64,000 nucleotides of DNA from NCBI GenBank assembly GCA_034002925.1, contig JAVEZP010000001.1, positions 66,523 through 130,522 of the forward strand, given 5' to 3'. Under the pieces are notes generated by a model. That model worked only from the letters and a program-made list of their open reading frames with translations. It made no database searches and had not been told where the DNA came from. The position numbers and the translations under genes were made by a program. Shown here in pieces: positions 405-58,999 of the stretch (the first letter of the stretch is position 1; the number at the start of each line of letters is the position of its first letter). Source of the stretch: Patescibacteria group bacterium (GTDB lineage: Bacteria; Patescibacteriota; Patescibacteriia; Patescibacteriales; UBA12465).

Positions 405-1160
405 TTACTGCAACAAACCTTCTCCCAATGGATTATAACTATTAGCAACTTCTTCTCCATCGCTATAACCATCAGCATCTGAATCAGCTATTAAAGGGTC
501 AGTACCATAAATTCCTATTTCTTCATAATCAGTTAGGCCATCAGCGTCAGAATCTGGATTTAAAGGATTTGTATTATAAATCATTACTTCTTCTCGATCG
601 GTTAAACCATCACCATCAGAATCTGGCAATAATGGATTAGTACCCAAATTAGCCTCATTATCATCAGTTAAACCGTCTTCATCCGAATCAATTTCTTGTG
701 GAGTGCTAATAATTGGTTGGCCAGGCGCTGGAGTCACCTCCTCTGGTTCAGGGCTAATTATTACCTCTTCTTCATCTTCAATTTGCGGAGCAACAACATT
801 ATTATCTTCAATTTCAGCCGTATTTTGTGGCACAACCGCTTCATTATTATTTGCAGGCACCATATTAACACCTCCTAAATTATTATCCGCTGTCGGATTC
901 ATTAATTTAGAATACACCAAATAAACAGCTGCTCCCAGAATTATAACAGCTAAAGCTAAGATAAGAATCATTTTCATTTTATTTTTTTCTTCTTTAGGCT
1001 CGTCTTCTAAAACTGCATCCAATTCACCTGTCTGAGCTGCGAGACCAGCTGGATGAGCCTCAATATTACTAGCATCACGAGTGACTGTATCAGTTTCTTC
1101 AAAAATATCATCAACATTTTTTTCTTCTGAATTTTGATTGTGATTAAGATTGTTGAACAT
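405..1160 (-). CDS. Membrane-anchored protein with C-terminal thrombospondin-type-3-like Ca-binding repeats (DxDxDGxxDxxE)
   Basis: 251 aa. One hydrophobic helix (MKMILILALAVIILGAAVYLVY) follows an acidic N-terminus. The C-terminal half carries 5-6 repeats such as DSDGDGLTDREE, DSDADGLTDYEE, DSDADGYSDGEE, matching the TSP3/OmpA-associated Ca-binding repeat pattern. Confidence 0.7.
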   Translation of the reverse strand: MFNNLNHNQNSEEKNVDDIFEETDTVTRDASNIEAHPAGLAAQTGELDAVLEDEPKEEKNKMKMILILALAVIILGAAVYLVYSKLMNPTADNNLGGVNMVPANNNEAVVPQNTAEIEDNNVVAPQIEDEEEVIISPEPEEVTPAPGQPIISTPQEIDSDEDGLTDDNEANLGTNPLLPDSDGDGLTDREEVMIYNTNPLNPDSDADGLTDYEEIGIYGTDPLIADSDADGYSDGEEVANSYNPLGEGLLQ

Positions 1161-1259
1161 ACACTTAAAAAGTTATTTATTATTCAATATTTACACTATT
1201 ATAGTATAACTTATTTTCAAAAAAAATGCACAAAAAAATGCACCTTAGTATTAAATCTA

Positions 1260-1565
1260 TTATCTAATTTGTAATTCTTTTCTATTAGTAATTAAATCGA
1301 CTTCTGATTTAATAATCTTGAAGGTCATAATCTCACCATTTTCATCTCGACTTAAGACCTGAACTTGAGTCTCTGGCGACAGATTATAACTAATTTTTTC
1401 AGCCTCTGTCATAAATACTGGCACTATCACCTCATCACTAGCAATCTCTAAGAGTGAGTTATCTAAATCATTATTTATTACCCGATCTTTTCTAAACCAA
1501 AATAGCAAAAAAACTAAAATGACTACTAAAAAAATAACGGCCAAAATATAAAAACTTTTTTTCAT
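1260..1565 (-). CDS. Small membrane-anchored hypothetical protein
   Basis: 101 aa with an N-terminal TM helix (FYILAVIFLVVILVFLLFWF). Sits between two secreted/membrane-protein genes on the same strand. No recognisable domain. Confidence 0.45.
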   Translation of the reverse strand: MKKSFYILAVIFLVVILVFLLFWFRKDRVINNDLDNSLLEIASDEVIVPVFMTEAEKISYNLSPETQVQVLSRDENGEIMTFKIIKSEVDLITNRKELQIR

Positions 1566-1597
1566 ATTAATTAAATTTTATTTTTTTATTAAAAATA

Positions 1598-4500
1598 CTA
1601 ATCTTTAACACATCTAATTGAGAAAGCATCATAAGCAAAATTACTAAATCTAACAATATTTTTATCCCAATCACCAATGGCGCGAACAGTTGTAGTTAAA
1701 TAGAGGTTAGGGTAATTATTTATGATCGAAGGTGTCCAAAAATATCCAGCTTGATTTAATTTTAAGTGCTGGCTATTACCATTATTATTTTTTATAAAAC
1801 CAGATTCTAAAGCATTAAAACCAAACAAATCAGTACCGCCAAAATCAATTGCTCGTAAGCTTTCCCCAGCAGGCTGACAACGAGGAAGCAAACTTGTTTG
1901 ATTTAAAGAGCAGGCTAATCCAGAATAATCTTGAGTCGCATAATACTCTAATTCCCAAAATTCTTCATCTAAGGGAATGTGCCAACCATTAGGGCAAATA
2001 CCCTGGGAAGTCCATCTAGTAGCTGCATTAATTTGATAAAGACCACCATAAATATCACAATTAGACTCTAAATCATCATAACAATATTTTTGAATAACTC
2101 CTTGAGAGTTTTGATCAGCGTTACTATTAATTCTAGTGCCAACATTCAAATTTTCAGCCATCCAACACTGCTCACCAATCATGACAGTTTGATATGTCTG
2201 GCCTTCATATTCTATCACTCCACAATCACTACTACCATCTTCACCTGGAACATCTCCATCTTCATCGCCAGGACCATCGTTTCCTTTACCATCATCTGTG
2301 GGACCATCGTTTCCTTTACCATCATCTGTAGGACCATCATTGCCCTTACCACCATCTTCAGAGCAATCTTCTGGACAATTATTTTGATTCTCCCAAGAAG
2401 TTAAGGTTCCGTTTATCTTAATTTGGGCTTGACAAATGCCATCACCACAAAAACCTCCTCCATTTTCGTCATCAGCATCAGTAAAGGTGCAAAAATATTG
2501 ATAATTAGGAATGGGGTATGGAACTGTATCACCTGATTTAGTGGTGCAACCATATTGATAATTAGGATTACTATCTGGAATTTTACCAGCAGAGGTAACT
2601 ACACCTTGATTACCATCGCAGTCCTCAAAACCATCATTATAAAATCCACCTCGAGCTTCTGTGTTTGGTTTTTGTAAAAGACCATCACCACAATAAGTAT
2701 TAATATTTAAAACAAATTCTTTTTCTGAAACAGCTCCAAATTCATTTTCAGCCCTTACTTTAATTATATTATTAGTACTAGCTGTTATTGGTGTTCCCTG
2801 AATAACGTAAAAAGGAGAAACCATAGGAGCAGCCGTAGCGCGCAGTGATATTTTATGCCACATATTAGTAGCTAATTTTCTAATTTTTTGCCAAAAATCT
2901 AAAGTAGAAATATCATTTTCAATATCTGGTTCATATAAATTGCTCGCCTCAGTAATAGTTAAACCTGGTGGTAAAGAGCCAACAACAGAATAGGTAATAG
3001 TATGATCTCCTTGTTTTCCCCAACCCAAACCACAATAATATTGTGAGCCAACGCGAACATTTTCATTACAATTAAAATCAAGAGCTGGGGGGTCAGCTTT
3101 AACATTGATATTAATTTGTTTCTCAGAATTATTAGAATATTTATCTGTTGCGCCAATAGTATAAACAAAATTAGTATCAGTAGGAAAACTATTACTAGTC
3201 AATAAATTATATTTCAAAGTATAATGCACCGTATCCCCAACTCTATAATTAGAACTACCTAGAAACATCGCATGACTAGGTGCTAAAAGATCAAAAGGCC
3301 CAGAATTCCAAGTGGCGTGATTAAAAGTATAGCTAACCGGTTGATCATTATCAGTGACACTAAAATTAATAATTAAAGGCAAGACGACGCTCGGATAATA
3401 ATTAATATCATTAGCTTGAATAAGTGGCGGATTATTGCCGATTACAATCGGAGTGACAGTAGCTAAAGTACCACCATAGCCATCATTAACATTTAAAGAA
3501 ACATTATAAACTCCAGGAACCCCTGCCTTGGCAGCATACAATCTTTTTTGATTTGGATTAGCTGTGTCTTGTAAAATCGGAGCAGCACTCCAGCCAGACC
3601 AATTAGCTGTGTTGGTATTAATACTCCAATTTAAAGTATTATTCTCAGGATCAAGCACGCGAATAAAACCATTAAATACTTTATCCTGCTCACCTGCTAG
3701 ATTAGTACTAATTAATACAGGCGCTTCATTACTGCTAGAGCCAACATAAGCAGAACCACTGTCAACGCAACCAGACTCTGCTAATTGCCCTTCGGCTGTA
3801 TTATAACCTAAGCTTTTGGTTTCCATGCTAGCGCATAAATTATAATTAGAACCATTGGCATCACTAGTATAGACAAAAGCATGACTAGCTGATGGCAATT
3901 CAAACTCGGAATCTAAAGGATTAGGATCAGCAAATTTATTATTAGTTGCATCCCAACAAGTTATAGGATCATAACCTGGACAAGAGCCTAAAAAATTAAT
4001 TGGATCTAATGAGCTTTGTGTTGCTCCAATTTGTGGCAAAAAAGCACTCTGCCAACTCGGCCAGACTGAAGTAGTGGTCAAAGGAATATAGCTACCAGCA
4101 GCTAAAACTGGGTAACGGCCGTTAATCTGCTTAAAAGAAGATAGCGCCTCTCTTAAATCACCTAAAACTCCTAAACGACGCACATCACGATTCACTTTAG
4201 CTCTTAAGCTACTACAATATATCCCATCCGCACAGTCAGAATCAACATAACAAACTTGCTCTTCTGCGGGTAAACATCGTCCAGGTGCTTCACCGTTTAT
4301 CACACACGACTGCGACTCCGAACAGTCCGTGTCTTGTTCACATAATAAAGTAGAGATATTGCATTGACCTGGAGTATTTAAATTACTATTAAAACGCCAA
4401 TTTTTTATAATTTGCCCTAACACATCTACCGTATTATAATCAGGGCTTTGATTATAAGAAATTAAATAAATATTAGTATAAATAGTCTGACTAGCTAAAT

Positions 4501-4774
4501 CTACATTCGCCGCATTGACATAGACAGTTCTGCCGTCACGCACAGCATCATAGCCATCAACTAACAATGATTGTGGTGAACCTTGAAAATTTTGGCTCTG
4601 ATACCACCTGGCCGCGCTATAATGATTAGGATTGGGTAGAATTCTAATCGCAATTACATCGGCTTCATCCGAAATATTGTAATCCGTGTTAATAGGCGTC
4701 AAATTATCCGCTTTTGCCACAATAGGCATAAAACAGAAAACTATTAATAAGAACAAAGAAAATTTAATTTTCAT
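1598..4774 (-). CDS. Large secreted Cys-rich protein with a tandem DGGKGNDGPT repeat and a C-terminal FISUMP-like (Fibrobacter succinogenes major paralogous) domain
   Basis: 1058 aa with a clear signal peptide (MKIKFSLFLLIVFCFMPIVAKA). Many Cys clusters and an N/S/T-rich middle region. The C-terminal ~150 aa (CGVIEYEGQTYQTVMIGEQCWMAENLNVGTR...YGGLYQ...CPNGWHIPLDEEFWELEYY) matches the FISUMP/TIGR02145-type signature CWMAENLN...YG.LY.W...CP.GW.LP...EW..L. Only 9 nt separate it from the upstream giant gene. Confidence 0.75.
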   Translation of the reverse strand: MKIKFSLFLLIVFCFMPIVAKADNLTPINTDYNISDEADVIAIRILPNPNHYSAARWYQSQNFQGSPQSLLVDGYDAVRDGRTVYVNAANVDLASQTIYTNIYLISYNQSPDYNTVDVLGQIIKNWRFNSNLNTPGQCNISTLLCEQDTDCSESQSCVINGEAPGRCLPAEEQVCYVDSDCADGIYCSSLRAKVNRDVRRLGVLGDLREALSSFKQINGRYPVLAAGSYIPLTTTSVWPSWQSAFLPQIGATQSSLDPINFLGSCPGYDPITCWDATNNKFADPNPLDSEFELPSASHAFVYTSDANGSNYNLCASMETKSLGYNTAEGQLAESGCVDSGSAYVGSSSNEAPVLISTNLAGEQDKVFNGFIRVLDPENNTLNWSINTNTANWSGWSAAPILQDTANPNQKRLYAAKAGVPGVYNVSLNVNDGYGGTLATVTPIVIGNNPPLIQANDINYYPSVVLPLIINFSVTDNDQPVSYTFNHATWNSGPFDLLAPSHAMFLGSSNYRVGDTVHYTLKYNLLTSNSFPTDTNFVYTIGATDKYSNNSEKQININVKADPPALDFNCNENVRVGSQYYCGLGWGKQGDHTITYSVVGSLPPGLTITEASNLYEPDIENDISTLDFWQKIRKLATNMWHKISLRATAAPMVSPFYVIQGTPITASTNNIIKVRAENEFGAVSEKEFVLNINTYCGDGLLQKPNTEARGGFYNDGFEDCDGNQGVVTSAGKIPDSNPNYQYGCTTKSGDTVPYPIPNYQYFCTFTDADDENGGGFCGDGICQAQIKINGTLTSWENQNNCPEDCSEDGGKGNDGPTDDGKGNDGPTDDGKGNDGPGDEDGDVPGEDGSSDCGVIEYEGQTYQTVMIGEQCWMAENLNVGTRINSNADQNSQGVIQKYCYDDLESNCDIYGGLYQINAATRWTSQGICPNGWHIPLDEEFWELEYYATQDYSGLACSLNQTSLLPRCQPAGESLRAIDFGGTDLFGFNALESGFIKNNNGNSQHLKLNQAGYFWTPSIINNYPNLYLTTTVRAIGDWDKNIVRFSNFAYDAFSIRCVKD
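2271..2360 (-). repeat. Tandem 30-nt coding repeat, 3 copies, encoding (T)DDGKGNDGP(T) inside the 1058-aa gene
   Basis: ggaccatcgtttcctttaccatcatctgtg appears at 2271-2300 and 2301-2330, with a diverged third copy at 2331-2360. The protein shows GKGNDGPTDDGKGNDGPTDDGKGNDGPGDEDGD. Confidence 0.8.
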
Positions 4775-4783
4775 ATATAAAAA

Positions 4784-7700
4784 TTATTGAACATTTAGCA
4801 CAATGTAAGTTGGCACTGATTTAAAGCTTTCGTTGCCACTGGCATCTAAAGCCGTTAAAGCAAAATAGTTAGCACCAGCAGGAAATTGCCTTAAATCCAA
4901 TTCTAATGATGTAGCCTGATTGTCCGAATCAAAAGATTGTCCATATTGACCAGCATTAACGCCATGATACAAACGATAGAATAAAGTGTCATCATTGTTA
5001 GCCTGCCAAGTAAATCTCAGTCTCTGTCCATTTACAATTAAAGCGCTTAAATTTTGAGGAATAGTAGGAGCTTGACTATCGCTAATTATTACCGTTTTTT
5101 CGTTAGATAAAGCGCTTTCTACTTGATTAATAGAAATAGCTGAAACTTTTACTTTATAATTAGTATTATTATTTAAACCAGTAATAACTTTTTGACAAGA
5201 ATAGTTCTGTCCTGCGCTTGGACTTAATGGTGTGCAAGCTGGAGTGACGACATCATTATATTCAAAAGACGCAGTTGGTTTGACATCAATAAAATTCCAG
5301 GTACCACTATTTTCAGGTGCATAATATATACGATATTTACCCAATTGATTGGGATCAGCGTTATAAATCAAGCTCGCATCGCCATACCATTCAATTCTAG
5401 CACTATTACCATCAGCCAAATCAATAGCAGCTGTGATAGCACCGACACTTGGCGCCGCTTCTTTAAAGAAATAGGATTCTTTTAATACATTCCAAACACA
5501 GAAACCATCTCCTATACCATCACTATTACGATCAGGGCCACAACTAGCTCCTAAAGTAGAGCAAGTACTTTGCCCTTCACTACAAACCAGCGATTCATTT
5601 GCACCTAAAATTAAACCGGGATCAATCATGGCTGGTAAATCATCCGCTAAACCATCAACACCGGCATCACGACAATAATAGAACTTATAATTATAATTAG
5701 CACAATTACCAGTCGCTCCCTCGCAGGTATCATACCAAGGAGACCAATTTAAAGTACCAGAATTCACGGCTGGCCACGGATTTTGACAAATAAAGACAAA
5801 GAGAGGGACCTCTGTTTGCACGCCATCACCATCAGTATAAGCATTACAACAATTATTTAAACAATTTGGCTCAGCGCAGACACAAGTAGGACTACTATTA
5901 CAAGAATTACCACTAAAACGATCCATATTAATAGCTGTCGTCATCATCGTAGAATCATCTACTACGTTTTGGTTAGCCACTACAAAGGCTTGATGATCAG
6001 CTAAATTAGCAGGATCAGCTAAAAAGGCAACTCCATTATTCATTAAATCCCAATCCCAATCCCAATAATATCCGGAGGTGGGAGTTAATAATTGATTATC
6101 TGCACTATAAGCACGTGCATTAAATAATTTATCTTGATCGCTAACACTGTCAAAACTAGAATCATTAACATCATCATCATTTTCATTAATATCATCATTA
6201 GTGCTTTGGAAGAGATATGAATTTGGAGCAACACTAACATACTCTACACTACAAACACCACTATTTGTTCCTTGATCAGATAAAGTTGCAAAACTAGAAA
6301 TATAAGAATTATGAAAACTCAAATTATTGAAAGTAATATTTTCTCCTTCAACATATAAACCATTATTTAAATCTAAATAACCCTGGCCATTCATACCTAC
6401 CATCCATTGACTAAGAACGCCCACATCACTATTTAAAGTTTCATCACCCTTGACCACTAAATAATACTTAGTGCCTGCGCTTAACATTTTTTTAGGTTTA
6501 AACTCAGCAGTAGTGCCAACACCATCGTGCTGAATAGAAACAGACCCAGGAACGGCACAATAAAGTTTGGTATTAGAAGGCAGAGCATGAGCTAAAGCAG
6601 AGCTAGAAAAAGTATTCTTACGGAAAACTGAATTCACAACAGCTAACACTCTATTAATCGTGCGTTTGAACCAGTTATTAGCTTGAGAGCTATCTAAACT
6701 AGCAACAAATGTGCCGCTAGGACAAACTCCTGTGCCATAGTCTTTTTCTTCTAATAAAATAATATTGTTCATCAAACTAGCAACATCCATACGTTGATCA
6801 AAAGGAATAGATATAGCAGCGTTGCGACAAACATTATCTGCGCCATGGGCAGGCACTAAATTATCAGTCATGATATTAGGACGAGCACGACAACAAGTAC
6901 CAGAATCGCAACCCACATTAACCGCATCACCACAATCTAAATCTTCACTACAACCACAACATAAACCACGGTTTTCTCCAGAACAAGGAGTCTGATTAGG
7001 TTGACAAACTAAATCGCCGCTACCTAAACCAGCGCAAGATTCTGGATTACTGACTTGACAGCAACATGTACCACAATCTCCTGGTATGCCACCTGCTCCG
7101 GCTTCATTTAAACAAGCAAAAGGTGAAGAACAGAAAGAAGTATTACAAGTATCAATCGCTGTTAAATCACGACAATCTTGACCAGCTCCGCTAGGGCTAG
7201 AATTTGCACAAGCATAAACACAAGCTGAAATAGTATTATAATCACCCACCATAGAAGGGGTCTGATTACATTGAGTTTCATTTGGAGCCGCCTGACAATT
7301 ATAATAAGCGCAATAACCATCAATTGGACTAATGCTATCACCGCCGATACAAGTACCATCACTATAATTATAACAACAGTCGGCAGCCATAGAACAGGAA
7401 CTATAATCACCATCATGTTGACTACAAAAACTTACACCTGGATTAATTTCACAATTAGCATCACAAGTACTAATATCTTTAAATAATCCAATTTTTAAAG
7501 GATTGTCAGCCGCACATAAACTAGGATCACCATTTTCATCCTGACAATTATAATAAGCGCAATAACCAAAATCTGGACTTGAAGGGTCTGAACTAATATC
7601 TTCACCGCTACCACCTACACACACATCATCTGTAATCGTATCAGTGCCTTTTGAATCTAGACAACAAACTTGACTATGATCAAGACAAGACTCTCTAGAA

Positions 7701-10645
7701 AGACTGCTACAATCTGTACAAACACCCGTTGGAACAGAGGTATCACAATATTTACCAGAACTAATAGCACAATTACAAGCCTGATCAGAAGCCGCTACAT
7801 CAAAACCACCGCCACTAGCAGGAATAGCACAGCCTGAGCACTGACCTAATCCAGAATTATCTTCACTAGTGTCACTACCACAAGTACCAGAACAAACTAA
7901 TGGAGCACAGCAGTCTCGTGCATCTTGACCAATTTCACAACAACAATCACAACGAGAACTTTCTTCTGACATGCAAATATTATTTTGACAACTAGCACCG
8001 CTAGGACAAAGATTGGCACTAGCACAAACTCCTTGAGTGTCATTGTTCATTTCGCTTTCAAATACATCCATATTAGCAATACAATTTAGTCCATCATCAC
8101 ATAAAGAACAGCTAGATTCGGTAGCGCTAGTACTGCTAACACATCGATTGTTTGATAGTCGCGTCCAGCCACTAGGACAAGAAGTAGGAACTTTAATCTC
8201 CCAATGACTTTGATTATTGTATTCAGAAAATACTTTACAAGTTTGAGGAGCGCTAAAAGCTACACCATTTAAATCATAATTTAAAATTGAATCTAAAGAA
8301 CAAGTATTATTATTTAATACGCACACATCACGTTCACTATCATAGGTACAAGCCTGAGGATTACCAGCACAAGCCGCTACGCTCTCACAACTTGCATCAC
8401 AAGTACCTACGTTTTGCAAACCACCTGAGAAAGGTGAACATAAGCCAGCCGAATTAGGACAAAAAGCACCAACCTGACAAGCGCCTAAAGCTTGAGCCAT
8501 GCCTTCACAGCTATCATAAGGAGTGCTAGTGCTCACACCGCCAAAGCCAGTTGCAAAATCCCATTCAAAAATAGAATTAGGAATAGTAATATAACATTCC
8601 GCTAAAGAAGCCACGCATTGATTTTGTTTATAAGTACCAGCTGGACAGCAAATATCCGCTCCACACTCATTATCAGATTGACAAATGCCTACTTCAAAAT
8701 TGACCACATTGCCCCATTCTCCATTTTTGACCACCCTCACTGGTCCACTGCTAGCTCCAACAGGAACTGATGAATCTATTTTCTGAGCTGATCCATCACT
8801 GACAATAGTTTCTGTATTGTTTTTATTAGGAGTAAAGACTAAGAGAGCGCTGCCATTAATCTCACCAAAATATTCTCCCCACACACTTACTGGCGATGAT
8901 ACTGGCCCGCGAGAAGGAGAAATACGACAAATACTGGTTTTTAAAGATGCTTCCGTATCCACTTGAAATACATTGGGGTTAGCATTTTGAGAATTAATTT
9001 CTCCAGTAGTTAATTCAACCTTGATAGGATAATAACCATTATCTAAAGCAGCTGGTACTTTCACAATAATTTGACGATCTTGCCAAACAGAATCAGAGCA
9101 GACAGCTGGGAATTCATATTCTGCTTCTACTTCACCAAAAAAGACACGTGAAAAACCACGAGCACCACCAAAGCCACTGCCATAAATTGTCACATATTGA
9201 CCAGCTCTACCAACGCTTGGCGAGAAATAACTAATATATGGACCAGCATTAGGATCTACTTCCTTGTCAAAAGTAACATAATTACTTTTTTCTTGATTGC
9301 CATTAATAGTAGCTAACACGAAACTACTTGTTTTTCCTTGGCGCACATTCGGCACAGTAGTCACCCCATCAAGACCAGCTGGATCAATAAAGATAGAATC
9401 CAAACCCCTCACATTACTTTGATAATTACCAAAATAAGCTTCAGCTGAATATAAATTAAAACCTTGATAATTAACCTGTTGGCTAAGGGCGCCAACATTA
9501 GGATTCATTAAACATAAACCTGGTCTAACAATATCATTAACTAAAAAATCCGGTAAAATAGGGCCATTATCATCATTGCTAGTATCAGTATTATTATCAA
9601 CAGTGACTACGCTTAAAGCTCCGCTAATAGCACCACTTGGAACAGCTACAATAATCTGATTATTTGTCCAAGAATTAATACAATTAGGATTAATATTCAC
9701 CGGCTCTACTCCTGTTGTATTATTAGCAAATAATACTTTACTGTTTTGAGGATCATAATTCCCAAAATTAGTACCACTGATAGTAATAAAATTATTAACA
9801 GCACCGTTAGGAATTTCCGTATTACAAGTAGTTACACAATCATCATTATTTAAACAACTCTTATTCTCATCTTCTTCACAAAAACCACCCATAGGACTAA
9901 TCCCTGTAATCACTGGTGGTCCATAACAAGTACAGGTCTCTGTGCTACAACTTAAATATTCAGCACATAGATTATCATCAGCGCTACAAGTCTGACCACT
10001 AGGATCCGCATTACAAGCATCTCCTAAATTGCCTTTAGGCACACATTCGCAAGAGCCTGTATTACAATAACTATCTTCGGCGCACATTTGATCAGCTGCC
10101 TGACAACCAGCCAAAGGACTGCTATCACAATACTGAGGTCCAGTTCCGCCCCCACAATCACTACCTAAACAAGGACCCCAAGAACCTTCAGTACAAGTCA
10201 TAGAACCACCACAACCGCACGACAAAACTTGTCCAGTGGTACAAGTCGAACCTGAGCCGCCTCCACTACCAGTCGCACTAATTAAACGATTTAAAATAAA
10301 AGTAGCAATACCCCAAGCTGATAAAATAATTAAAAGACCAATAATACCATTTTTTAAAATCTTTTTAGCTTGTTCAATTTTTTCTTCTGCTCCGTTAGAA
10401 GTCATCCAAATAAAACCACCCCAAATAATTAAGCCTAAAGCTATCACGCCTAAAAGCAACATAGTGATATTAATGATACGAGCCACTACTGCCCGAGGAT
10501 CTTCAGCGCTAAGAGCAATATTTTCATCAATCACACTAAGTCCAGGATCAAGCTGAGCCTGAGCAGTATAAGCCAGAGAAATGCCAATCAATAACAACAA
10601 AAATATTAAAACTGAACGCTTTATTTTAATGTTAAAATTAAACAC
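4784..10645 (-). CDS. Giant (1953 aa) Cys/Ser/Thr/Asn-rich surface protein with an N-terminal pilin-like two-TM module (VirB2/TrbC-like topology) and a C-terminal FN3-like domain
   Basis: Starts at a GTG (ORF-track start). Signal peptide, then IINITMLLLGVIALGLIIWGGFIWMTSNGAEEKIEQAKKILKNGIIGLLIILSAWGIATFILNRL (two TM helices around a charged loop), then a Gly/Ser linker and ~1800 aa of extracellular sequence. The extracellular part has many CxxC and Cys clusters, a duplicated SP(D/I)(F/D)GYCAYYNCQ motif and an FN3-like C-terminal end. Its N-terminal module is ~70% identical to that of the next gene. Confidence 0.8.
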   Translation of the reverse strand: MFNFNIKIKRSVLIFLLLLIGISLAYTAQAQLDPGLSVIDENIALSAEDPRAVVARIINITMLLLGVIALGLIIWGGFIWMTSNGAEEKIEQAKKILKNGIIGLLIILSAWGIATFILNRLISATGSGGGSGSTCTTGQVLSCGCGGSMTCTEGSWGPCLGSDCGGGTGPQYCDSSPLAGCQAADQMCAEDSYCNTGSCECVPKGNLGDACNADPSGQTCSADDNLCAEYLSCSTETCTCYGPPVITGISPMGGFCEEDENKSCLNNDDCVTTCNTEIPNGAVNNFITISGTNFGNYDPQNSKVLFANNTTGVEPVNINPNCINSWTNNQIIVAVPSGAISGALSVVTVDNNTDTSNDDNGPILPDFLVNDIVRPGLCLMNPNVGALSQQVNYQGFNLYSAEAYFGNYQSNVRGLDSIFIDPAGLDGVTTVPNVRQGKTSSFVLATINGNQEKSNYVTFDKEVDPNAGPYISYFSPSVGRAGQYVTIYGSGFGGARGFSRVFFGEVEAEYEFPAVCSDSVWQDRQIIVKVPAALDNGYYPIKVELTTGEINSQNANPNVFQVDTEASLKTSICRISPSRGPVSSPVSVWGEYFGEINGSALLVFTPNKNNTETIVSDGSAQKIDSSVPVGASSGPVRVVKNGEWGNVVNFEVGICQSDNECGADICCPAGTYKQNQCVASLAECYITIPNSIFEWDFATGFGGVSTSTPYDSCEGMAQALGACQVGAFCPNSAGLCSPFSGGLQNVGTCDASCESVAACAGNPQACTYDSERDVCVLNNNTCSLDSILNYDLNGVAFSAPQTCKVFSEYNNQSHWEIKVPTSCPSGWTRLSNNRCVSSTSATESSCSLCDDGLNCIANMDVFESEMNNDTQGVCASANLCPSGASCQNNICMSEESSRCDCCCEIGQDARDCCAPLVCSGTCGSDTSEDNSGLGQCSGCAIPASGGGFDVAASDQACNCAISSGKYCDTSVPTGVCTDCSSLSRESCLDHSQVCCLDSKGTDTITDDVCVGGSGEDISSDPSSPDFGYCAYYNCQDENGDPSLCAADNPLKIGLFKDISTCDANCEINPGVSFCSQHDGDYSSCSMAADCCYNYSDGTCIGGDSISPIDGYCAYYNCQAAPNETQCNQTPSMVGDYNTISACVYACANSSPSGAGQDCRDLTAIDTCNTSFCSSPFACLNEAGAGGIPGDCGTCCCQVSNPESCAGLGSGDLVCQPNQTPCSGENRGLCCGCSEDLDCGDAVNVGCDSGTCCRARPNIMTDNLVPAHGADNVCRNAAISIPFDQRMDVASLMNNIILLEEKDYGTGVCPSGTFVASLDSSQANNWFKRTINRVLAVVNSVFRKNTFSSSALAHALPSNTKLYCAVPGSVSIQHDGVGTTAEFKPKKMLSAGTKYYLVVKGDETLNSDVGVLSQWMVGMNGQGYLDLNNGLYVEGENITFNNLSFHNSYISSFATLSDQGTNSGVCSVEYVSVAPNSYLFQSTNDDINENDDDVNDSSFDSVSDQDKLFNARAYSADNQLLTPTSGYYWDWDWDLMNNGVAFLADPANLADHQAFVVANQNVVDDSTMMTTAINMDRFSGNSCNSSPTCVCAEPNCLNNCCNAYTDGDGVQTEVPLFVFICQNPWPAVNSGTLNWSPWYDTCEGATGNCANYNYKFYYCRDAGVDGLADDLPAMIDPGLILGANESLVCSEGQSTCSTLGASCGPDRNSDGIGDGFCVWNVLKESYFFKEAAPSVGAITAAIDLADGNSARIEWYGDASLIYNADPNQLGKYRIYYAPENSGTWNFIDVKPTASFEYNDVVTPACTPLSPSAGQNYSCQKVITGLNNNTNYKVKVSAISINQVESALSNEKTVIISDSQAPTIPQNLSALIVNGQRLRFTWQANNDDTLFYRLYHGVNAGQYGQSFDSDNQATSLELDLRQFPAGANYFALTALDASGNESFKSVPTYIVLNVQ

Positions 10646-10727
10646 AAGTTCATTACACAGTAAAGAGTAAAGCTATATTATAGACTTACCAAACAATACT
10701 GTATTTTATTTAACTAATATAAATAAA

Positions 10728-13403
10728 TTAAGGGCAATTACCATCTAAGCCAAGTAAGGCAGTGGGCACACCATTACAACAAGAAGGGTTATTAGCATCG
10801 GCAGCACAATCTAATCCAGCACTAGGTTTAAAACAATTTTGATAAATATCTTTAACGCCAGAACCTAATTGAGTATAATAAGTAACAGATTCGGCTAAAT
10901 TAGTATGCTGCACAAAAACCGAAGTAGTATCTGGTTCACCATCAAGCGGATTAACATCTTTATTCTCTGCTCTTACCCAATAACCTAAAGGCTGATTTGA
11001 TTTGCTAAACAGATTAATCAAGCGATGTTCAAATTGATCTTGGCCGTTATCAATCACGACGCTGCCTGTACGCAAACTATCATTCATCATCAAGGTGTTA
11101 AAATTTATTTGAACTGGCAATAATGTGTCAGCATCAGTAATTCCTAAATCAGGTTTTATAAAAGTAATAACCGGTGGCTCCGTCATCATCTCATCACTAA
11201 TGTGAAAAGTCCAAACATAATTATCTCTTTCGTTAAGCAGTGGATTGTTCTCATTATAAAATTCTAAAGGGCCCTCAGCGAAACTATTACGATTACCATC
11301 GAAGGAATTAGTAGCAGCATCTACTACACCATTTAAATTATTAAAGTCAGCTACCGGATAATTATTTTGATTTTCATCTTGACATACTTGGAAAGAATTG
11401 GATAATCCACAATAACTAAAAGGCGCAAATTGACTACAATCATTATTTGTTTGACACGAATGCAAATCAGCCGCTCTTAAACGCACAGCTAGGTGACTAT
11501 TAGCTGGTAAACAATAAATAGTGTCACCACAAGCATTTTGTCCACAAGCAACATCTGACCTAAATTCAACTGTACGGTACATATTAGATACTGTAAAATC
11601 ACCCGATAAATAATCACCCACACAAACAGAGTTGTCACAGTTATAAGACAAACAATCACTATCTTGTGCACAGCTTGCGTTAGAAGCTAAAGCCGATGCG
11701 GAAGCATTAACTACTTTTATATTTTGACTAACTTCATCAGCACTCCCGGCTATTAACAAAGGATTCACAGCTTCATTAAAATTTAATTGAATAACTGTAT
11801 TCATTGGCCGATCTTGACGATCTTTAGTTTCATTATTTTTTAACAAATCTTGACCACCAGCAAAAGGAGTAATAGCCAAAGTATTAAGATTATTACTAGT
11901 TAAATAAATATTATTACCAGCTGCTCCCGCAACCTTAGCACTTAGATTAACCGTGCCCGCTTCTTTTTCAACATTAATATCTGGATGACCACTAATACTG
12001 GTATAAATAGCAGTCGCTACAATACTAGGAGAACAATTTTGTGGATCGATCACAATATTATTAGCACCTGCATTTTCAGAAAAATTATAAACTTCAGTGC
12101 CAATAGTTAAATTATCAGCTAAGGATACTGGTTGAATTAACACATCCCAAGCACTCCCAGCCTCATGACCTTCCACAAATAAATCAATAAAACCTGGGAA
12201 CGATACGCTATTTCCTTGCCAAGCAGCTGCTCCTAATAATTGACCCTCAGCAAATAATTGTGCCTGACTATTATCCATAATACTTACCACCGATACATTA
12301 GCAAAAGATTGATAATTAGAATCAACGGTAGCAGTTGCATTAAAAGAACCGGCACTAGGGGAAACACTTACCACGCTAGCTGCTTGATAAGTTTGCGGAC
12401 AAGCCTGAACTACAATACTAGCTGTAGCTGGTACTGCAGCACTTATTTGATTAAAAATATCTTTTTCATTATCTGGTAAAGGAAAAATGCCACCCTTTCT
12501 AACCTGAGGAGGCGTTAAATCTAATTGATTGCTAACTTCAAATCCCCAGGTGAAGAAATCATTATTACAAGTTTTAAAAATTGATTCTCCTTCATCAGTT
12601 AACAAGCCATTACTTAAATAAACACTATAATCAGTATTACCATCGCTTTTACCTAATAATTCATTAGGTTTAATAATAAAAGTACGTCTGTCTGAAGATG
12701 CAGAGACACTGGCATTATTTAAATTCAGACTATCGACAGGACAAGAACTGGAATCACAATCATCACCAAAGTCATCACGGAAAATACGAATATTTACCGG
12801 ATTAATTAAACTACACTCACCACCATCACAAGCACAAGCATCGCCAGCTGCATTTTGACAAACACTCTCAAGATCAAGAGCTGTTTTAAAACTAATAATA
12901 ATTGAAGAATTACGAGCTACTTCTTTTTGTCCAGGCTCAGGATATACTCGTTCTATAGTACAAGCACCTAAAGCGCCAGTGCCCTGTAAAGAATTCACAT
13001 TAGCATTATTACCACCATTAAAACCACCGGTTCCGGTCGCTTGCATTAAACGATTTAAAACAAAAGTAACAACACCCCAAGCAGACAAAATAATAATTAA
13101 ACCAATAATAGCGTTACGTAGAATTTTTTTAGCTTGCTCAATTTTATCCTCACTGCCGCCACTAGTCATCCAAATAAAGCCAGAATATATAATCAAAGCT
13201 ACTGCTATTGCCCCTAAAAACAATAAAGCAACATTGATAATTCTGGCAATAATTACTCGCGGATCAGTTGGACTTAAAGCAATCACAGAATCAATTTCAC
13301 TCGTGCCCACATCTAAGCCTTGAGCGAAAACAACTGTTGCCAATGAGATACCTGCCAAAAATACTAGCGAAAAGAGAAAAAAAGATAATAATTTGCGTGA
13401 CAT
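10728..13403 (-). CDS. Large (891 aa) Cys-rich surface protein, paralog of the preceding gene through a shared N-terminal pilin-like two-TM module
   Basis: ATG start. N-terminus MSRKLLSFFLFSLVFLAGISLATVVFAQG...ARIINVALLFLGAIAVALIIYSGFIWMTSGGSEDKIEQAKKILRNAIIGLIIILSAWGVVTFVLNRLMQATG aligns with the 1953-aa protein, then diverges into Cys-rich domains. It is the first gene of the minus-strand block. Confidence 0.8.
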   Translation of the reverse strand: MSRKLLSFFLFSLVFLAGISLATVVFAQGLDVGTSEIDSVIALSPTDPRVIIARIINVALLFLGAIAVALIIYSGFIWMTSGGSEDKIEQAKKILRNAIIGLIIILSAWGVVTFVLNRLMQATGTGGFNGGNNANVNSLQGTGALGACTIERVYPEPGQKEVARNSSIIISFKTALDLESVCQNAAGDACACDGGECSLINPVNIRIFRDDFGDDCDSSSCPVDSLNLNNASVSASSDRRTFIIKPNELLGKSDGNTDYSVYLSNGLLTDEGESIFKTCNNDFFTWGFEVSNQLDLTPPQVRKGGIFPLPDNEKDIFNQISAAVPATASIVVQACPQTYQAASVVSVSPSAGSFNATATVDSNYQSFANVSVVSIMDNSQAQLFAEGQLLGAAAWQGNSVSFPGFIDLFVEGHEAGSAWDVLIQPVSLADNLTIGTEVYNFSENAGANNIVIDPQNCSPSIVATAIYTSISGHPDINVEKEAGTVNLSAKVAGAAGNNIYLTSNNLNTLAITPFAGGQDLLKNNETKDRQDRPMNTVIQLNFNEAVNPLLIAGSADEVSQNIKVVNASASALASNASCAQDSDCLSYNCDNSVCVGDYLSGDFTVSNMYRTVEFRSDVACGQNACGDTIYCLPANSHLAVRLRAADLHSCQTNNDCSQFAPFSYCGLSNSFQVCQDENQNNYPVADFNNLNGVVDAATNSFDGNRNSFAEGPLEFYNENNPLLNERDNYVWTFHISDEMMTEPPVITFIKPDLGITDADTLLPVQINFNTLMMNDSLRTGSVVIDNGQDQFEHRLINLFSKSNQPLGYWVRAENKDVNPLDGEPDTTSVFVQHTNLAESVTYYTQLGSGVKDIYQNCFKPSAGLDCAADANNPSCCNGVPTALLGLDGNCP

Positions 13404-13417
13404 TTTATTTCTTTTAT

Positions 13418-13466
13418 ACCATGAAACATGGTATAATTTATTAGCTAAATAGACGACTTTATTATA
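13418..13466. promoter_or_regulatory. Divergent promoter region: palindrome TACCATGAAACATGGTA overlapping a plus-strand TGgTATAAT (toward rel) and a minus-strand TGaTATAAT (toward the surface-protein block)
   Basis: Perfect inverted repeat at 13418-13434. Plus-strand tggtataat at 13429-13437. On the minus strand, attatatca at 13461-13469 reads tgatataat, an extended -10. No clear -35 on either side. Confidence 0.35.
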
Positions 13467-13495
13467 TCATAAAATGACAAATTTGAAAAAACATT

Positions 13496-16615: not shown

Positions 16616-17203
16616 TTATTTACTTTCATTAGTAGAAAAATTATATTCTACTTGTTCATTAAAAATTTTTGCTCGATCAAAAGGCCATCCTCTCAACATT
16701 ACTCTACCGGTAATAAAACTTTTATTAACTGGACCAAAAACTCTTGAATCTTTAGAAGCAACCCGATTATCGCCCATCATAAAATATTCATTAGGGCCTA
16801 AATCTATTCTATCATCACTATTAGAATAAGTGGGCATATTAGCATCCAAATAATCTTCTTGTAAAATCTTTCCACCTGGATATTCTTGATTATAAATAAT
16901 TACCTTAGAATCTTTTACCTGCACACCCTCTCCTGGTAAAGCAATAATTCTTTTAATATAATATTCTTGCGGATTAAGAGGATAACGAAACACCACTACT
17001 TCTCCTCTTTCAATAGGACGAAAACGATAGCTAATTTCATCAATAATTAAATATTCATGGTCTTGAAAATTAGATTCCATGGACATCCCCTTTACATAGA
17101 AAGGCTGAATCAAAAAATAGCGCACCGGAATAATAATCGCAAAAGAAATCGCTAACACTTTAATGCCCTCCCAAGCTAAAATGAGAAATTTTTTAAATTG
17201 CAT
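16616..17203 (-). CDS. lepB: Signal peptidase I
   Basis: N-terminal TM, GMSMESNF (Ser box), YIKRIIALPGE, GDNRVASKDSRVFGPV. Confidence 0.85.
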   Translation of the reverse strand: MQFKKFLILAWEGIKVLAISFAIIIPVRYFLIQPFYVKGMSMESNFQDHEYLIIDEISYRFRPIERGEVVVFRYPLNPQEYYIKRIIALPGEGVQVKDSKVIIYNQEYPGGKILQEDYLDANMPTYSNSDDRIDLGPNEYFMMGDNRVASKDSRVFGPVNKSFITGRVMLRGWPFDRAKIFNEQVEYNFSTNESK

Positions 17204-33872: not shown

Positions 33873-34841
33873 CTAATGACCGACACCGAATATGTCGTCA
33901 AATGATTTAATTCGGATTATTCGGCTATCTGGGACATAATTCCAAACAGTCATTCGACGTAGATTATTTTCATCATTAAAATGCCACGTAACTTTACAAG
34001 CATCTTCATACTTATAAGCTTTAGACATGCGACCAGGACGCAATGGCTTAGACACAGGCATAGAAAATAAGGTAATATCATCCCCAACATTCTTAAAGCG
34101 TACTTTCATATTTGGCAATAAAGAAGCAAAATCGAAAAATTGACTATTATCAATCTCGATTATTTGGTTTGGATCAGTGACCATAAAAATCAATGATTGT
34201 TGTGCTAGAAAAAAAGACTGAGCGGCGCCATCTGCTCCATAGATAATCTCTTTATATATCACATTTAATTCCAAGATTCCCGGACTAACATCTTCAATGG
34301 ATATTAAAGTATCATTTTCTCCAACAACAGCGCCAGTAAAGGCACTACCGACAAACATCAAGTCACCTTTTTTTGATTTGTTAATCACCTGAACTGGAAA
34401 CTTCTCTATTGCAGTGCTTAGTTTTTTAATAATATTGACTTCACCTACTTTTGGGCTATAGTCACCCTGATCAGCACTGTTTTGGTTAGGCTTTTGAGTC
34501 TGTGCTTTATTGGTCTGTTTCGTAGCAGACGCTTGAACTACCGCTGCTTTAGGAGCCTCGGGCAGAAAAAGTTGCCCATTACTCACCTTTACATTATTGG
34601 CGATTTTTTCCACGAATCGCCGTCCTTCTTTATAGCGTACTCTGATGCTCACATTACCGCTCTTGGGTAAATACGGAATGATTTTAGATTCGCCCTGTTT
34701 AATCAGGGTGGGGCCTCCTTTGCCGTCGACAGAGATTTCGATATCCTGCCTAAAACCATGGCTAACCGTGGTCTGGGCCAGTAAGATGGTAGGGGCAATA
34801 AAAATTGCCACAAAAAAAATAAAACCTTTTACGTTTCTCAT
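33873..34841 (-). CDS. Secreted hypothetical protein
   Basis: Signal peptide MRNVKGFIFFVAIFIAPTILLAQT. No recognisable domain. Confidence 0.5.
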   Translation of the reverse strand: MRNVKGFIFFVAIFIAPTILLAQTTVSHGFRQDIEISVDGKGGPTLIKQGESKIIPYLPKSGNVSIRVRYKEGRRFVEKIANNVKVSNGQLFLPEAPKAAVVQASATKQTNKAQTQKPNQNSADQGDYSPKVGEVNIIKKLSTAIEKFPVQVINKSKKGDLMFVGSAFTGAVVGENDTLISIEDVSPGILELNVIYKEIIYGADGAAQSFFLAQQSLIFMVTDPNQIIEIDNSQFFDFASLLPNMKVRFKNVGDDITLFSMPVSKPLRPGRMSKAYKYEDACKVTWHFNDENNLRRMTVWNYVPDSRIIRIKSFDDIFGVGH

Positions 34842-35029: not shown

Positions 35030-38000
35030 TTATTTTAATTCTTTTGTCACATTCGCCAATTTAGATTCATATTGACTTTGTAATTTTTCAATCATTTCTA
35101 AGCTCTGCTCAGGACTCGCTACCGCCGTCGTGCCATCACTCATATCAACAATAGTGACCAATTGTTTTTCATAATCAATGTCAGCTATAAATACAGACTC
35201 GGGCTTCATGCTAGCTGCTAATTCTGCTTCTTTAGCTAAGCTATTTATATCATCAAACACATATAATTTATTACTAATATATTTTAAATCACTAGCACTC
35301 TGCAGATTGTTAGCTTCATAGGTTTTTTGATTAATTACCATTCTATCTAAAAAGCCATCACCATCTTTATCAAAAAATGATTTTTCGCCACCATTATCTG
35401 ACAAAACAGAAAATCCTTTTTCGGAGGTCATAAAGCGCATATCTCCTTTAAAGTCCATTTGATAAAATCTCGCCCCTCTCTCAATTCTTTCTACTTTATT
35501 ATCAAATTTTTTCACAAAGTCAGTAATTTTTGTTAAATAATTTTTACTTTGTTCATTTTTGTTACCTATTATTTCGCTAGATACTGAAACATCAGAAATA
35601 GCATCCTGAGCATCTACTTCCGGCTCTATTATCGGCTCCTGTAAAACAAAAATATTTTCCCCTTCTAAGCCTGTACTATTTAAGGTAAAATCTAAAACTT
35701 CATTATTTTCTTTTAAGACCACTTGATAGCCATCATCTATTACATTTATTTGAGCAATATTATTAAGATCAATATTTGCTAAATTAATTTTATCTACCGT
35801 GCCTTTAGTTAATTTATCTGCAATCAAAAAATTATCTTCTAATTTCCAATTTAAATTCTTAAAAGCATTATTTTCATACAGGCCTTTAAACCAAGGATAG
35901 CTATTAATATCAGCTTGAACTTTAGCATCTATGGTTGGCGCGCTAGCATTAATATGTTCTGCAGTAATATTATCTTGAGCCTCTTTTGCAATAAATTGTT
36001 TATTTTCTAAATTTGTATCTAATGACTCAGTATTTAAACCATTGTCTGTTATAAATTCGCTATTAGACTCTAAATTGAATTTCTCCACTAAGAAATTTTG
36101 AACATCAATTACCGGATTTCCTTTTTCATCAGCTAAAAAACCAGAAATTTCTTCTCCAGCGTCATTAAAAAAGAAATATTGCTCATTGATAGGATCAATA
36201 AATATATCCTCTCCCCCAATCACTGTTTTAACAATATTGTCTCCTACGTAAGTTATTTCTTCTGCCTCTAAAGAAAATTTATCTCCAACCATGGCTAACC
36301 ATTTGTTAAGTGCTACTGGTGAAGCCTCAAGTGATTTAGCATTAGGAATGATAATATCATTAACTACTTGCTCAGAACTAGGACTCGGTTGAAGCACTTC
36401 TTCTGTGAGCACTGAATTTGGAATTGATTCAATTTCAGGTAAAGGATCAAGACGCTCAGTAGTAAGCGCCACCTTTGGCTCTAAACCAGTACCTTGCTCC
36501 ACAGTAACTACAAACGAATCATTAACTTTTTCTAAGACCACTCGATTACCTTCAAATACCATATCTGTTAATTCACCACTATTAGCTAAAGCTTTATTTG
36601 TTTGAATTTCTGCCCATTTGTTCAAAGCATCTTCGTTACCTTCATAACCTAAACTTTCGGCATTACGTAAAAATATTTCTTTAGTTGATCGCCACACTGA
36701 ATCATGTTGTCCTGATTTTAAACCTTCATTACTAATTACATCAGACCAAGAAGACTTTTCAATACTGGGCACTACATTATCTTCATCAAGTGTTGTCACG
36801 GGCTCAATTAACTCAGTACTAATGGTATCATTTATTATTTCTTGAGCCTCCGTTAATTCTGCTTCTGAACCAGATACAACACTCTCGGACACCACATTGT
36901 TCATAGCAACATCTTCTAGACCATCTTGAAATATATGAGAAGATGCGCCATAAGCGGCTGAACCTATGCTGGAAAAAATAGCCCCAGTAAAAGCTCCTTT
37001 TATCATCTGATTAACAATAAATTTTTTTCTTTTTTGATCTAATTTTTTATCTGCTTTATCTTCTAGATGATTTAACAATCTCATTGCTCTGGCTTGAGTC
37101 TCAATTAATGCAACCGAAGAACTATTTTCTAAGTCTGCATCCTCAGAAAAAACATTAAAACCCAAAAGACTCATTTGAGCCTGATTAAGCGTGTTGTAGA
37201 AAGCGATCATATTCTGGCTTCTATCGCTTATAACACCAAAATTAATTAAGCCATCATCAGCTAATCTCTTACTAAAATCTAAACGACGTTGTAAGACGGC
37301 TGATATCTTATTATGCTCTTCCCGTGTAGCAGTGTTATTTAATTGAGCTAAAAGATCTTCTAATTTACGAGTTAGATCTTCAGATTTTAAAGTCTTTCGT
37401 TCTACATTTTTTTGCTCTATTTTTTGCCATTGTAAATCTAATTCTTTAAATCTTTTTTGAGCAGATTCATATAACAACAAATCGTCTGGATGAGCAATAG
37501 TTGACCAATCTTCAAAGCTCATTCGCCCTGTTTTATTTTTAAATTGTTCATTATCAATCTCGCTATATAAAGGTAAAAAAGATTGCAAATCTTTCAAAGC
37601 AGCTTGCCTTTGAGTTAATAGTGGATGAGAAGCTAAATTTTTTTTATCAACAAATTTATCTTTTTCTTTTAATTGTTTATTGGCTCTTTCTTTTCCTCGC
37701 CAAGCACCAATCATAGCAGCAGTTAAAGGAATAGCCGCTGCTCCAGCCGCCACACCAAAAGTATTAATTGCTGCCATAGATAGACCCTGACGACCAGCAA
37801 AGCCACCAGCTAAAAATTTCCAATTATCTTTTGAGGCAACATACTTACCAGCCGCTTTAAAAATACTTTTAAAAATAGATTCTTTCTGTAATGTCTCGCT
37901 CCACTCTCGCTCTAAATTAGGATCAGCAGCAAAAAACTGCATCATATTTAATTTAGCATCAGCATTATATAAATATAAATCAATTTCTTTAGCATGCAAC

Positions 38001-39674: not shown

Positions 39675-41157
<1,483 letters not shown>

Positions 41158-58878: not shown

Positions 58879-58951
58879 GCGCCTATAGCTCAGGGGTTAG
58901 AGCACCGCTCTTATAAAGCGGGGGTCGATGGTTCAATTCCATCTAGGCGCA
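58879..58951 (+). tRNA. tRNA with anticodon UAU (AUA-decoding tRNA-Ile type)
   Basis: Acceptor gcgccta/taggcgc. D arm gctc-aggggtta-gagc. Anticodon stem ccgct/agcgg with loop cuUAUaa. T arm gatgg-ttcaatt-ccatc. Discriminator A. Confidence 0.75.
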
Positions 58952-58999
58952 CAAATACCGACTATTTAATTGCCGGCTTTTAATTTTATTAATTTCCTG

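Follow-up and report, generated by a model that had tools for sequence, protein, structure and literature searches.

Two adjacent genes in the genome of a tiny, Falkowbacteria-like Patescibacteria group bacterium encode very large predicted surface proteins that begin with a pilin-like module, and they raise the question of whether this module still works as a pilin or only holds its passenger in the membrane. The genes, here called A and B, lie in a stretch of 64,000 nucleotides (nt) of assembly GCA_034002925.1 (contig JAVEZP010000001.1, positions 66,523 to 130,522); this whole stretch is referred to as the window. They were first noticed in an interpretation made from the letters of the window (the sequence-only reading), which described two giant paralogs sharing an N-terminal module, and both open reading frames (ORFs) are present exactly where that reading placed them (Table 1). 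In brief, the N-termini of A and B are, at the sequence level, members of the Patescibacteria pilin family, and the fused architecture is widespread in the lineage and abundant in databases. Our tentative interpretation, held at a little under even confidence, sees A and B as modular VirB2-type pilins, that is, surface proteins docked via a functional pilin module and not via a mere hydrophobic anchor.

The resemblance between A and B is confined to their N-termini. BLASTP aligns 117 positions, of which 73 are identical (62%; 75% positives; E-value, 9e-40), and detects no significant similarity outside about the first 120 residues. Identity is 69% in the mature core (residues about 45-122), so the value of about 70% quoted in the sequence-only reading describes this core and not the 117-residue alignment; the N-terminal motif quoted with it reads correctly in both translations. 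The range of 890-1950 amino acids (aa) given there for the ectodomains is that of the full-length proteins (891 and 1953 aa), and the ectodomains themselves measure about 755 aa in B and about 1820 aa in A. Proteins identical to A and B occur on independent assemblies (JGI 3300042286, JGI 3300042274 and Logan SRR35183610), and the two genes are therefore no assembly artefact.

Evidence that the shared module is a pilin comes from several profiles. PF18895 (T4SS_pilin, for type IV secretion system [T4SS] pilin) has a gathering cut-off of 26.6 bits, which is exceeded by both N-terminal fragments of 135-138 aa (scores in Table 1) and also by the full-length proteins (42.0 bits for A, 42.7 bits for B). 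In both modules, residues about 51-119 are matched by the NCBIfam model NF045849 ("Mbov_0395 family pilin-like conjugal transfer protein") with E-values of about 1e-7 and 29-31 bits, short of its cut-off of 40 bits. PF04956 (TrbC/VirB2) gives no match to the window modules at E-values up to 1 in the Pfam scan; it is matched by close free-standing relatives (4 of 11 aligned sequences; best E-value, 4.1e-6) and weakly by the A ortholog in locus L001. In database searches with the isolated module, the nearest relatives are free-standing pilins of 118-168 aa, all of which match PF18895 and one of which is annotated "pilin". When the fused modules are aligned with nine free pilins, the common invariants are D49, G66, G77, M81, T82, G85, K94, I102-G103-L104, S109 and A110, and the signature motifs DPR, GFxWMTxxGxE, AK and IGLxIIL are kept in the fused modules. 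The pilin-like character of the N-terminus, and its likeness to the short "pilin" proteins of the Candidate Phyla Radiation (CPR), had both been put forward in the sequence-only reading; the profile searches that it proposed bear them out.

AlphaFold2 predicts helices at residues 4-28 (signal), 36-42, 50-82 and 87-125 of A, and at residues 2-21 (signal), 48-79 and 85-123 of B, plus a short helix. In each protein the two long helices are joined by a turn of four residues, and hydropathy segments agree with this arrangement, which is the proposed signal peptide followed by two helices and not a lone stop-transfer helix. Assignment of the signal peptide of B is supported by a hydrophobic segment as well as by the predicted helix; cleavage would occur at VFA/QG in B and at TAQA/Q in A. 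The linkers that follow the hairpin differ among orthologs, that of B in sequence and length, and that of A being variable and gappy. A Foldseek comparison of the isolated hairpin model with the PDB returned no match at E-values below 1, a bare helical hairpin being an uninformative query, and the hairpin profile found nothing among PDB sequences. The pilin assignment thus rests on sequence profiles.

In the A family and in the B family alike, the hairpin is the best-conserved segment. The majority-residue fraction is 0.73 (A) and 0.74 (B) in the hairpin, 0.60 (A) and 0.61 (B) in the ectodomain, and 0.43-0.46 in the signal peptides. Across 88 fused modules, 32 columns are conserved at 80% or more; at 24 of these, the matching free pilin has that residue too, likewise at 80% or more, and 20 are common to the other free pilins. 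In four genomes with both kinds of locus, the A and B modules share 44-62% identity with one free pilin, compared with 22-41% for the other six. This A/B-like free pilin is the first gene of the main array, and its identity between genomes is 68% versus 40-54% for the others.

The modules of A and B also resemble each other more within a genome than across genomes. For 44 species-level pairs, A-B module identity is 67.6% within genomes and 55.6% across genomes, and the orthologous comparisons (A-A, 57.7%; B-B, 57.3%) both fall below the within-genome A-B value. When all B modules are ranked by similarity to a given A module, the genome's own B comes first in 16 of the 44 cases. Its mean rank is 6.8, where 22.5 would be expected; none of 100,000 random draws gave a mean rank that low. 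An independent set of 26 contig pairs exhibits the same within-genome pattern. At locus L002, a tract of 291 nt is 100% identical between A and B; its ends coincide precisely with the mature N-terminus and the Gly linker, and its flanks are unrelated. Identical A-B runs of 68 nt and 64 nt are present at loci L006 and L042. These observations support, at the family level, concerted evolution of the A and B modules by gene conversion. Gene conversion had been suggested on the basis of the window, where a recent event is unsupported: the module DNA there is only about 75% identical in its core, and the longest exact runs are 15-17 nt. The suggestion therefore stands for relatives of A and B but not as a recent tract in the window itself.

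An exhaustive search with the module profile returned 69,668 representative proteins at E-values up to 1e-3. The best 150 comprise 42 free pilins, 54 proteins with concatenated hairpins, and 54 proteins in which a single module carries an extension of 107-4015 aa. By all-against-all BLAST of their ectodomains, 53 of these 54 fused representatives sort as A-like or B-like, and the remaining one, with the 107-residue extension, is linked to neither group. The idea that the module is a ubiquitous, generic display anchor on many unrelated passengers, which the sequence-only reading had named as an outcome that would undo it, was consequently dropped. More than 190 ortholog clusters, with lengths near 890 aa and identities of 43-68%, make up the B family, and almost every one carries PF18895 and PF13205. 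For A, the number of related clusters exceeds 260 (lengths of about 1600-2300 aa; identities of 41-70%), again with PF18895, here joined by PF01833, in nearly all.

A scan of species-representative genomes gave at least 589 matches, and the 79 best loci were taken; these belong to Falkowbacteria, Magasanikbacteria and other Patescibacteria, many of them metagenome-assembled genomes (MAGs) with placeholder names. Among 81 loci examined (Falkowbacteria, Magasanikbacteria and other ABY1-type lineages), 44 carry an adjacent B-A pair in constant order, with a B-like gene of 590-990 aa followed by an A-like gene of 1500-3470 aa and gaps mostly of -22 to +81 nt. Another 19 of the 81 loci are arrays of five to nine free pilin genes, and several genomes hold both a B-A pair and a free-pilin array. 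About half of the species-representative MAGs with the operon (L003-L081) bear the title "uncultured Gammaproteobacteria bacterium", and "Bacillota" and "Saccharimonadales" each appear once; on a Patescibacteria-specific operon, such titles are probably placeholders or wrong taxonomic labels.

Database names for relatives of A and B include "Ig-like domain-containing protein", "IPT/TIG domain-containing protein", "pilin" and "hypothetical". We found no description of a pilin fused to a giant ectodomain in the literature searched, with subscription-only papers outside the search, and the publications covered by it treat, for Patescibacteria, free VirB2-like pilins and their arrays only (PMC12102498, PMC10633639, PMC12857230). 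The remark in the sequence-only reading that it had seen no such fusion described is in keeping with these papers, but the proteins are a widespread, conserved family already deposited under generic names.

The passengers carried by the modules are of immunoglobulin (Ig)-like and related types. Beyond the module, Pfam assigns TIG, Big_5 and fn3 domains to A and two Big_5 domains to B. Cysteine makes up 6.8% of the A ectodomain and 3.4% of that of B, so the earlier description of "Cys-rich passengers" suits A better than B. The B ectodomain is modeled by AlphaFold2 as a confident, beta-rich structure with a mean pLDDT (predicted local distance difference test) of 85.9. Foldseek matches it best to the S-layer proteins SbsC and Sap, at TM-scores of about 0.1 that reflect a generic likeness among Ig chains, and searches of PDB sequences with A and with the B family profile found no solved relatives. 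The Pfam scan found neither SLH (S-layer homology) nor CWB2 domains in A or B, and no N_methyl or prepilin family at E-values up to 1. A sortase anchor (LPXTG, hydrophobic stretch and basic tail) is absent from both C-termini, which read ...YIVLNVQ and ...LGLDGNCP before the stop.

These features suggest how A and B might work as modular VirB2-type pilins. The cluster of B, A, a secreted protein, a small transmembrane protein and a protein with thrombospondin type-3 (TSP3) repeats would be transcribed from the conserved promoter-like site upstream of B, and the type I signal peptides would direct A and B to Sec export and then be cleaved. The two long helices are predicted to insert as a hairpin; by homology with F-pilin, the short charged turn would be cytoplasmic and both ends outside, which would place the linker and the ectodomain of 755-1820 aa outside the cell. 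In the F pilus, the N- and C-termini of the pilin are on the filament exterior, and the loop between the helices is cytoplasmic when the pilin is embedded in the membrane (PMC5018250). Because the termini are exterior in either state, a C-terminal passenger is compatible with a location in the membrane or in a filament. The hairpin would then make pilin-type contacts, as suggested by the retention of conserved pilin residues, the likeness to one particular free pilin, and gene conversion between A and B.

Through such contacts, A and B could join the pool or the assembly of the matching free pilin. A passenger of 100-200 kDa on each subunit would not fit a pilus lattice, so A and B alone presumably cannot polymerise; they are probably minor or low-copy subunits at the tip or base, or partners of the free pilin in the membrane pool, and not homopolymers. 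To judge from domain types only (Ig-like, TIG and fn3), the beta-rich, disulfide-rich ectodomains may serve contact, adhesion or coat functions toward a host cell or the environment. The more specific proposal, that a conjugation-derived T4SS of these monoderm bacteria builds a pilus carrying A and B at its tip or base as a host-contact organelle, we regard as possible but less likely than not.

Comparison with known systems shows both what A and B share with pilins and where they depart from them. Free Patescibacteria VirB2-like pilins belong to the same family (PF18895) and have the signal peptide, hairpin and signature residues of A and B. They are usually free-standing proteins of about 120-170 aa that end a few residues after helix 2, whereas A and B continue into their ectodomains to reach 891 and 1953 aa. 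Free pilins are typically located in or beside a T4SS cluster, often near virB4, whereas A and B lie away from T4SS genes; within an array they are about 25-33% identical (PMC12102498), in contrast to the modules of A and B, which are about 68% alike through gene conversion. The TrbC/VirB2/TraA pilins (PF04956) resemble A and B in that a long leader is cleaved off, the helices form a hairpin around a short basic turn, and both termini face outward; at the profile level, a weak sequence link runs through relatives. No description of a VirB2 or TraA protein with a large C-terminal domain, such as A and B possess, was found in the literature searched. The Mbov_0395 family of Mycoplasma integrative and conjugative elements, an 80-aa hairpin of monoderm conjugation systems, aligns to the A and B modules; that family, however, consists of small free proteins encoded on mobile elements, and A and B are chromosomal giants.

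The closest parallel in design is a different class of pilin. Modular type IV pilins, such as PilB and PilC of Streptococcus sanguinis, likewise combine a pilin module, a short linker and bulky modules (PMC8179133). Their bulky modules are thought to act in adhesion at the filament tip, and such pilins are common in CPR bacteria, including Falkowbacteria (Raynaud et al. 2021, PMC8179133). Their prepilin signal is of class III, their N-terminus has the N-methylation motif of IPR012902, and type IV pilus machinery assembles them, whereas A and B have type I signal peptides (A-x-A sites), a VirB2-type hairpin and no N_methyl match.

Several points weigh against the interpretation of A and B as modular VirB2-type pilins. 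Fold and sequence searches with the hairpin brought up no significant link to solved VirB2 or TraA structures. Gene conversion itself, or constraints of membrane insertion, could account for part of the module's conservation and of the likeness of A to B. The near-constant length of B and its presence throughout the clade are more what one would expect of a structural component of the envelope than of a variable adhesin. No genes for VirB4, VirB6 or VirD4 were found among 40 further ORFs scanned in the window, and no T4SS genes lie within 10 kb of the B-A pair at loci L001 and L002. The free-pilin array at locus L022 also has no T4SS genes beside it and no virB4 within 10 kb; its neighbours encode RecN, ComM, a solute-binding protein, a helix-turn-helix protein, a methyltransferase, a family 2 glycosyltransferase (GT2), a polytopic GT-C-like protein and PPDK, and there is thus no local link between array and virB4 in the lineage.

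In the literature, proximity of pilin and T4SS genes is reported for only 1135 of 1948 assemblies (PMC12102498), and a 2025 review credits Patescibacteria only with the "potential to elaborate conjugative pili" (PMC12857230); PF18895 proteins are not known from experiment to form a pilus. On the other side, Falkowbacteria (GTDB class ABY1) are VirB4-positive in 11 of 13 rows examined of Table S1 of PMC12102498. The VirB4-positive genomes there include HGW-Falkowbacteria-1 (L019), HGW-Falkowbacteria-2 (P0038) and RIFCSPLOWO2_02_FULL_45_15 (L063), and genomes with orthologs of B or A are among the VirB4-positive ones listed in that table. In the only Patescibacterium studied genetically, growth as an epibiont requires the T4SS and its pilin array (PMC10633639).

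Two further observations concern the free-pilin arrays. A lone extra pilin gene lies about 5 kb upstream of the arrays at L022, L028, L036, L051 and 15 other loci. The L022 array is flanked by the GT2 glycosyltransferase gene and by a gene for a 537-aa polytopic protein that has no Pfam match and the look of a GT-C enzyme; these neighbours hint at pilin glycosylation.

A last point against a role in pili comes from the proteins with concatenated hairpins, 54 of the best 150 module relatives, in which two to eight or more pilin-like hairpins occur in one polypeptide. Examples are P0250 (820 aa), P0251 (555 aa) and P0267 (1775 aa), which have short junctions and no internal signal peptides. Given these two features, the concatemers are expected to be polytopic membrane proteins. 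No single pilin could be drawn out of such a chain, which points to a role of the fold within the membrane; since the hairpins of the concatemers must remain there, the module can evidently function inside the bilayer.

The concatemers also lend weight to the alternative that survives best, namely, that the hairpin was co-opted as a passive anchor with both ends outside, and that A, B and the three secreted proteins encoded downstream form an S-layer-like coat with no tie to a T4SS or pilus. We regard this as possible, if rather less than probable. The permanent residence of concatenated hairpins in the membrane fits it, as do the location of the B-A operon amid housekeeping genes and the constancy of B in length and across the clade. 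The best structural matches of B, to SbsC and Sap, point in the same direction, but they express a generic Ig-chain likeness at very low TM-scores. S-layer proteins of Bacillus and Geobacillus (SbsC, Sap and EA1) do share with A and B a bead-on-a-string chain of Ig-like or Big_5-type domains; SLH domains tie them to polymers of the cell wall. A and B have a hairpin in the membrane instead and, in the Pfam scan, no SLH or other S-layer anchoring domain. A mere anchor should be neither the best-conserved part of the protein nor expected to keep 24 of 32 signature residues of one specific free pilin, which speaks against this alternative.

Proteolysis offers another explanation, in which helix 2 acts as an internal signal and a signal-peptidase-like enzyme cuts after a conserved A-T-G, releasing the ectodomain and leaving a pilin of normal size. 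A LepB-like peptidase, TraF, matures the RP4 pilin TrbC by C-terminal processing, which provides an analogy; free pilins stop a few residues past the same "SAT-G" position; and a signal peptidase I gene is present in conserved synteny three genes upstream of B. Nevertheless, the A-T-G shows only moderate conservation (A, 71-73%; T, 44-60%; G, 37-77%), Asn at the would-be -1 position in 40% of the A family makes a poor signal-peptidase site, and the linker resembles a variable, flexible tether. The simplest view of the peptidase is that a small genome has it as its housekeeping LepB. We consider such processing quite unlikely.

In conjugative pili, successive subunits are offset along the axis by a few angstroms, too little for each to bear a folded passenger of 755-1820 aa. 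A homopolymeric filament of A or B that displays a giant passenger on every subunit is therefore the least credible explanation, even though the module is complete as a pilin and F-type pilin has its C-terminus on the filament exterior (PMC5018250), the more so as the genomes also encode five to nine ordinary free pilins able to form the shaft.

The genes around A and B have a conserved organization (Table 1). Upstream of B, an element TATG(T/A)TATAAT is invariant in six relatives, and the extended -10 site is a putative promoter on the basis of this conservation and its match to the consensus. In the leader that follows, the left half of an inverted repeat (TAAATTATAyCA) is kept in relatives and the full palindrome is not; the repeat could be an operator or a leader hairpin. 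No terminator-like site was found between B, A and the next gene, suggesting that the three form an operon. The third gene begins 9 nt past the stop of A, and a counterpart of about 800-1040 aa occupies the same position at loci L001 and L002. Its product also carries a low-complexity repeat (GKGNDGPTDD). At the fourth and fifth positions, L001 and L002 have a gene of about 100 aa and a gene for a TSP3_bac protein. These three exported or membrane proteins encoded 3' of A (405-4774) may be partners of A and B. The signal peptidase gene near B is probably housekeeping lepB.

Synteny extends across the flanks: genes for an M16 peptidase, AddA, RuvB, QueA, signal peptidase I and HisRS, with RelA/SpoT on the opposite strand, are followed by B, A, the secreted protein of about 1000 aa, the protein of about 100 aa and the TSP3-repeat protein. 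This order is identical in the window, L001 and L002, genomes that are merely about 48% identical. No other pilin-like ORF is present in the 64-kb window.

Table 1. Features of the A and B locus and its neighbourhood (window coordinates; residue boundaries are approximate where marked "about")
Feature	Position	Strand	Description
Gene B	10728..13403	minus	891 aa, ATG start; pilin module and Ig-like (Big_5) ectodomain
B signal peptide (about residues 1-28)	13320..13403	minus	Putative type I cleavage motif VFA/QG, read from the sequence
B pilin module (about residues 29-123)	13035..13319	minus	Mature N-terminus, DPR motif, predicted two-helix hairpin; PF18895, 45.8 bits
B linker (about residues 124-141)	12981..13034	minus	Flexible, Gly/Asn/Thr; pLDDT <50 at residues 121-141
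B ectodomain (residues 142-891)	10731..12980	minus	Predicted string of beta-sandwich domains; conserved cysteines
Gene A	4784..10645	minus	1953 aa, GTG start; pilin module and Cys-rich ectodomain with TIG, Big_5 and fn3
A signal peptide (about residues 1-30/31)	10553..10645	minus	Putative TAQA/Q motif, read from the sequence; predicted helix 4-28
A pilin module (about residues 32-125)	10271..10552	minus	PF18895, 47.7 bits
A linker (about residues 126-134)	10244..10270	minus	Gly/Ser; pLDDT <50 at residues 126-135
A ectodomain (residues 135-1953)	4787..10243	minus	TIG about 243-650, Big_5 about 1262, fn3 about 1750-1950
Promoter-like site upstream of B	13458..13489	minus	TTTTCA-17-TATAAT with TG, extended -10 (TGATATAAT); consensus scan
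Inverted repeat, perfect, 10 bp	13414..13436	minus	TTATACCATG ttt CATGGTATAA; 5' leader, just before the B start codon
Third gene (secreted)	1598..4774	minus	1058 aa; signal peptide, Cys-rich region, FISUMP/Fib_succ_major domain; no pilin module
Fourth gene	1260..1565	minus	101 aa; N-terminal transmembrane helix; no family match
Fifth gene	405..1160	minus	251 aa; bacterial thrombospondin type-3 (Ca-binding) repeats; PF18884, E-value 1.4e-22
Signal peptidase I (S26)	16616-17203	minus	Three genes upstream of B; conserved synteny

Elsewhere in the window, a complete 16S rRNA gene (39676-41155, plus strand) stands alone with no 23S or 5S rRNA gene in the 64 kb, indicating that the rRNA genes are unlinked; it explains a local peak of G+C content at 40-42 kb. 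A tRNA-Ile gene with a UAU anticodon is located at 58879-58952 (plus strand). In most bacteria, AUA is read by a lysidine-modified CAU tRNA, so this gene represents an uncommon decoding solution. A 1373-aa ORF (35030-39151, minus strand) is another large uncharacterised protein; neither it nor a 322-aa neighbour (33873-34841, minus strand) has a Pfam match at E-values up to 0.01.

If A and B are indeed modular pilins at the tip or base of such a pilus, they would be the first of the conjugative (VirB2) class, and recurrent gene conversion would keep their pilin modules compatible with the major pilin. Giant pilins of this kind would be feasible only because these bacteria have no outer-membrane channel for them to pass. 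On the questions of what the T4SS does in Patescibacteria and whether it forms a pilus at all (PMC12857230), the A/B pair provides a concrete, testable handle. Should A and B co-assemble with free pilins, they would mark the likely contact or adhesion end, and the principle of the modular pilin would extend to conjugative-type pilins. Should they not, they would represent a new mode of anchoring a surface coat in monoderms that look wall-less and would be candidates for the unidentified envelope proteins of the CPR. Either way, gene conversion limited to the module provides a clean case of concerted evolution at the level of a protein domain.

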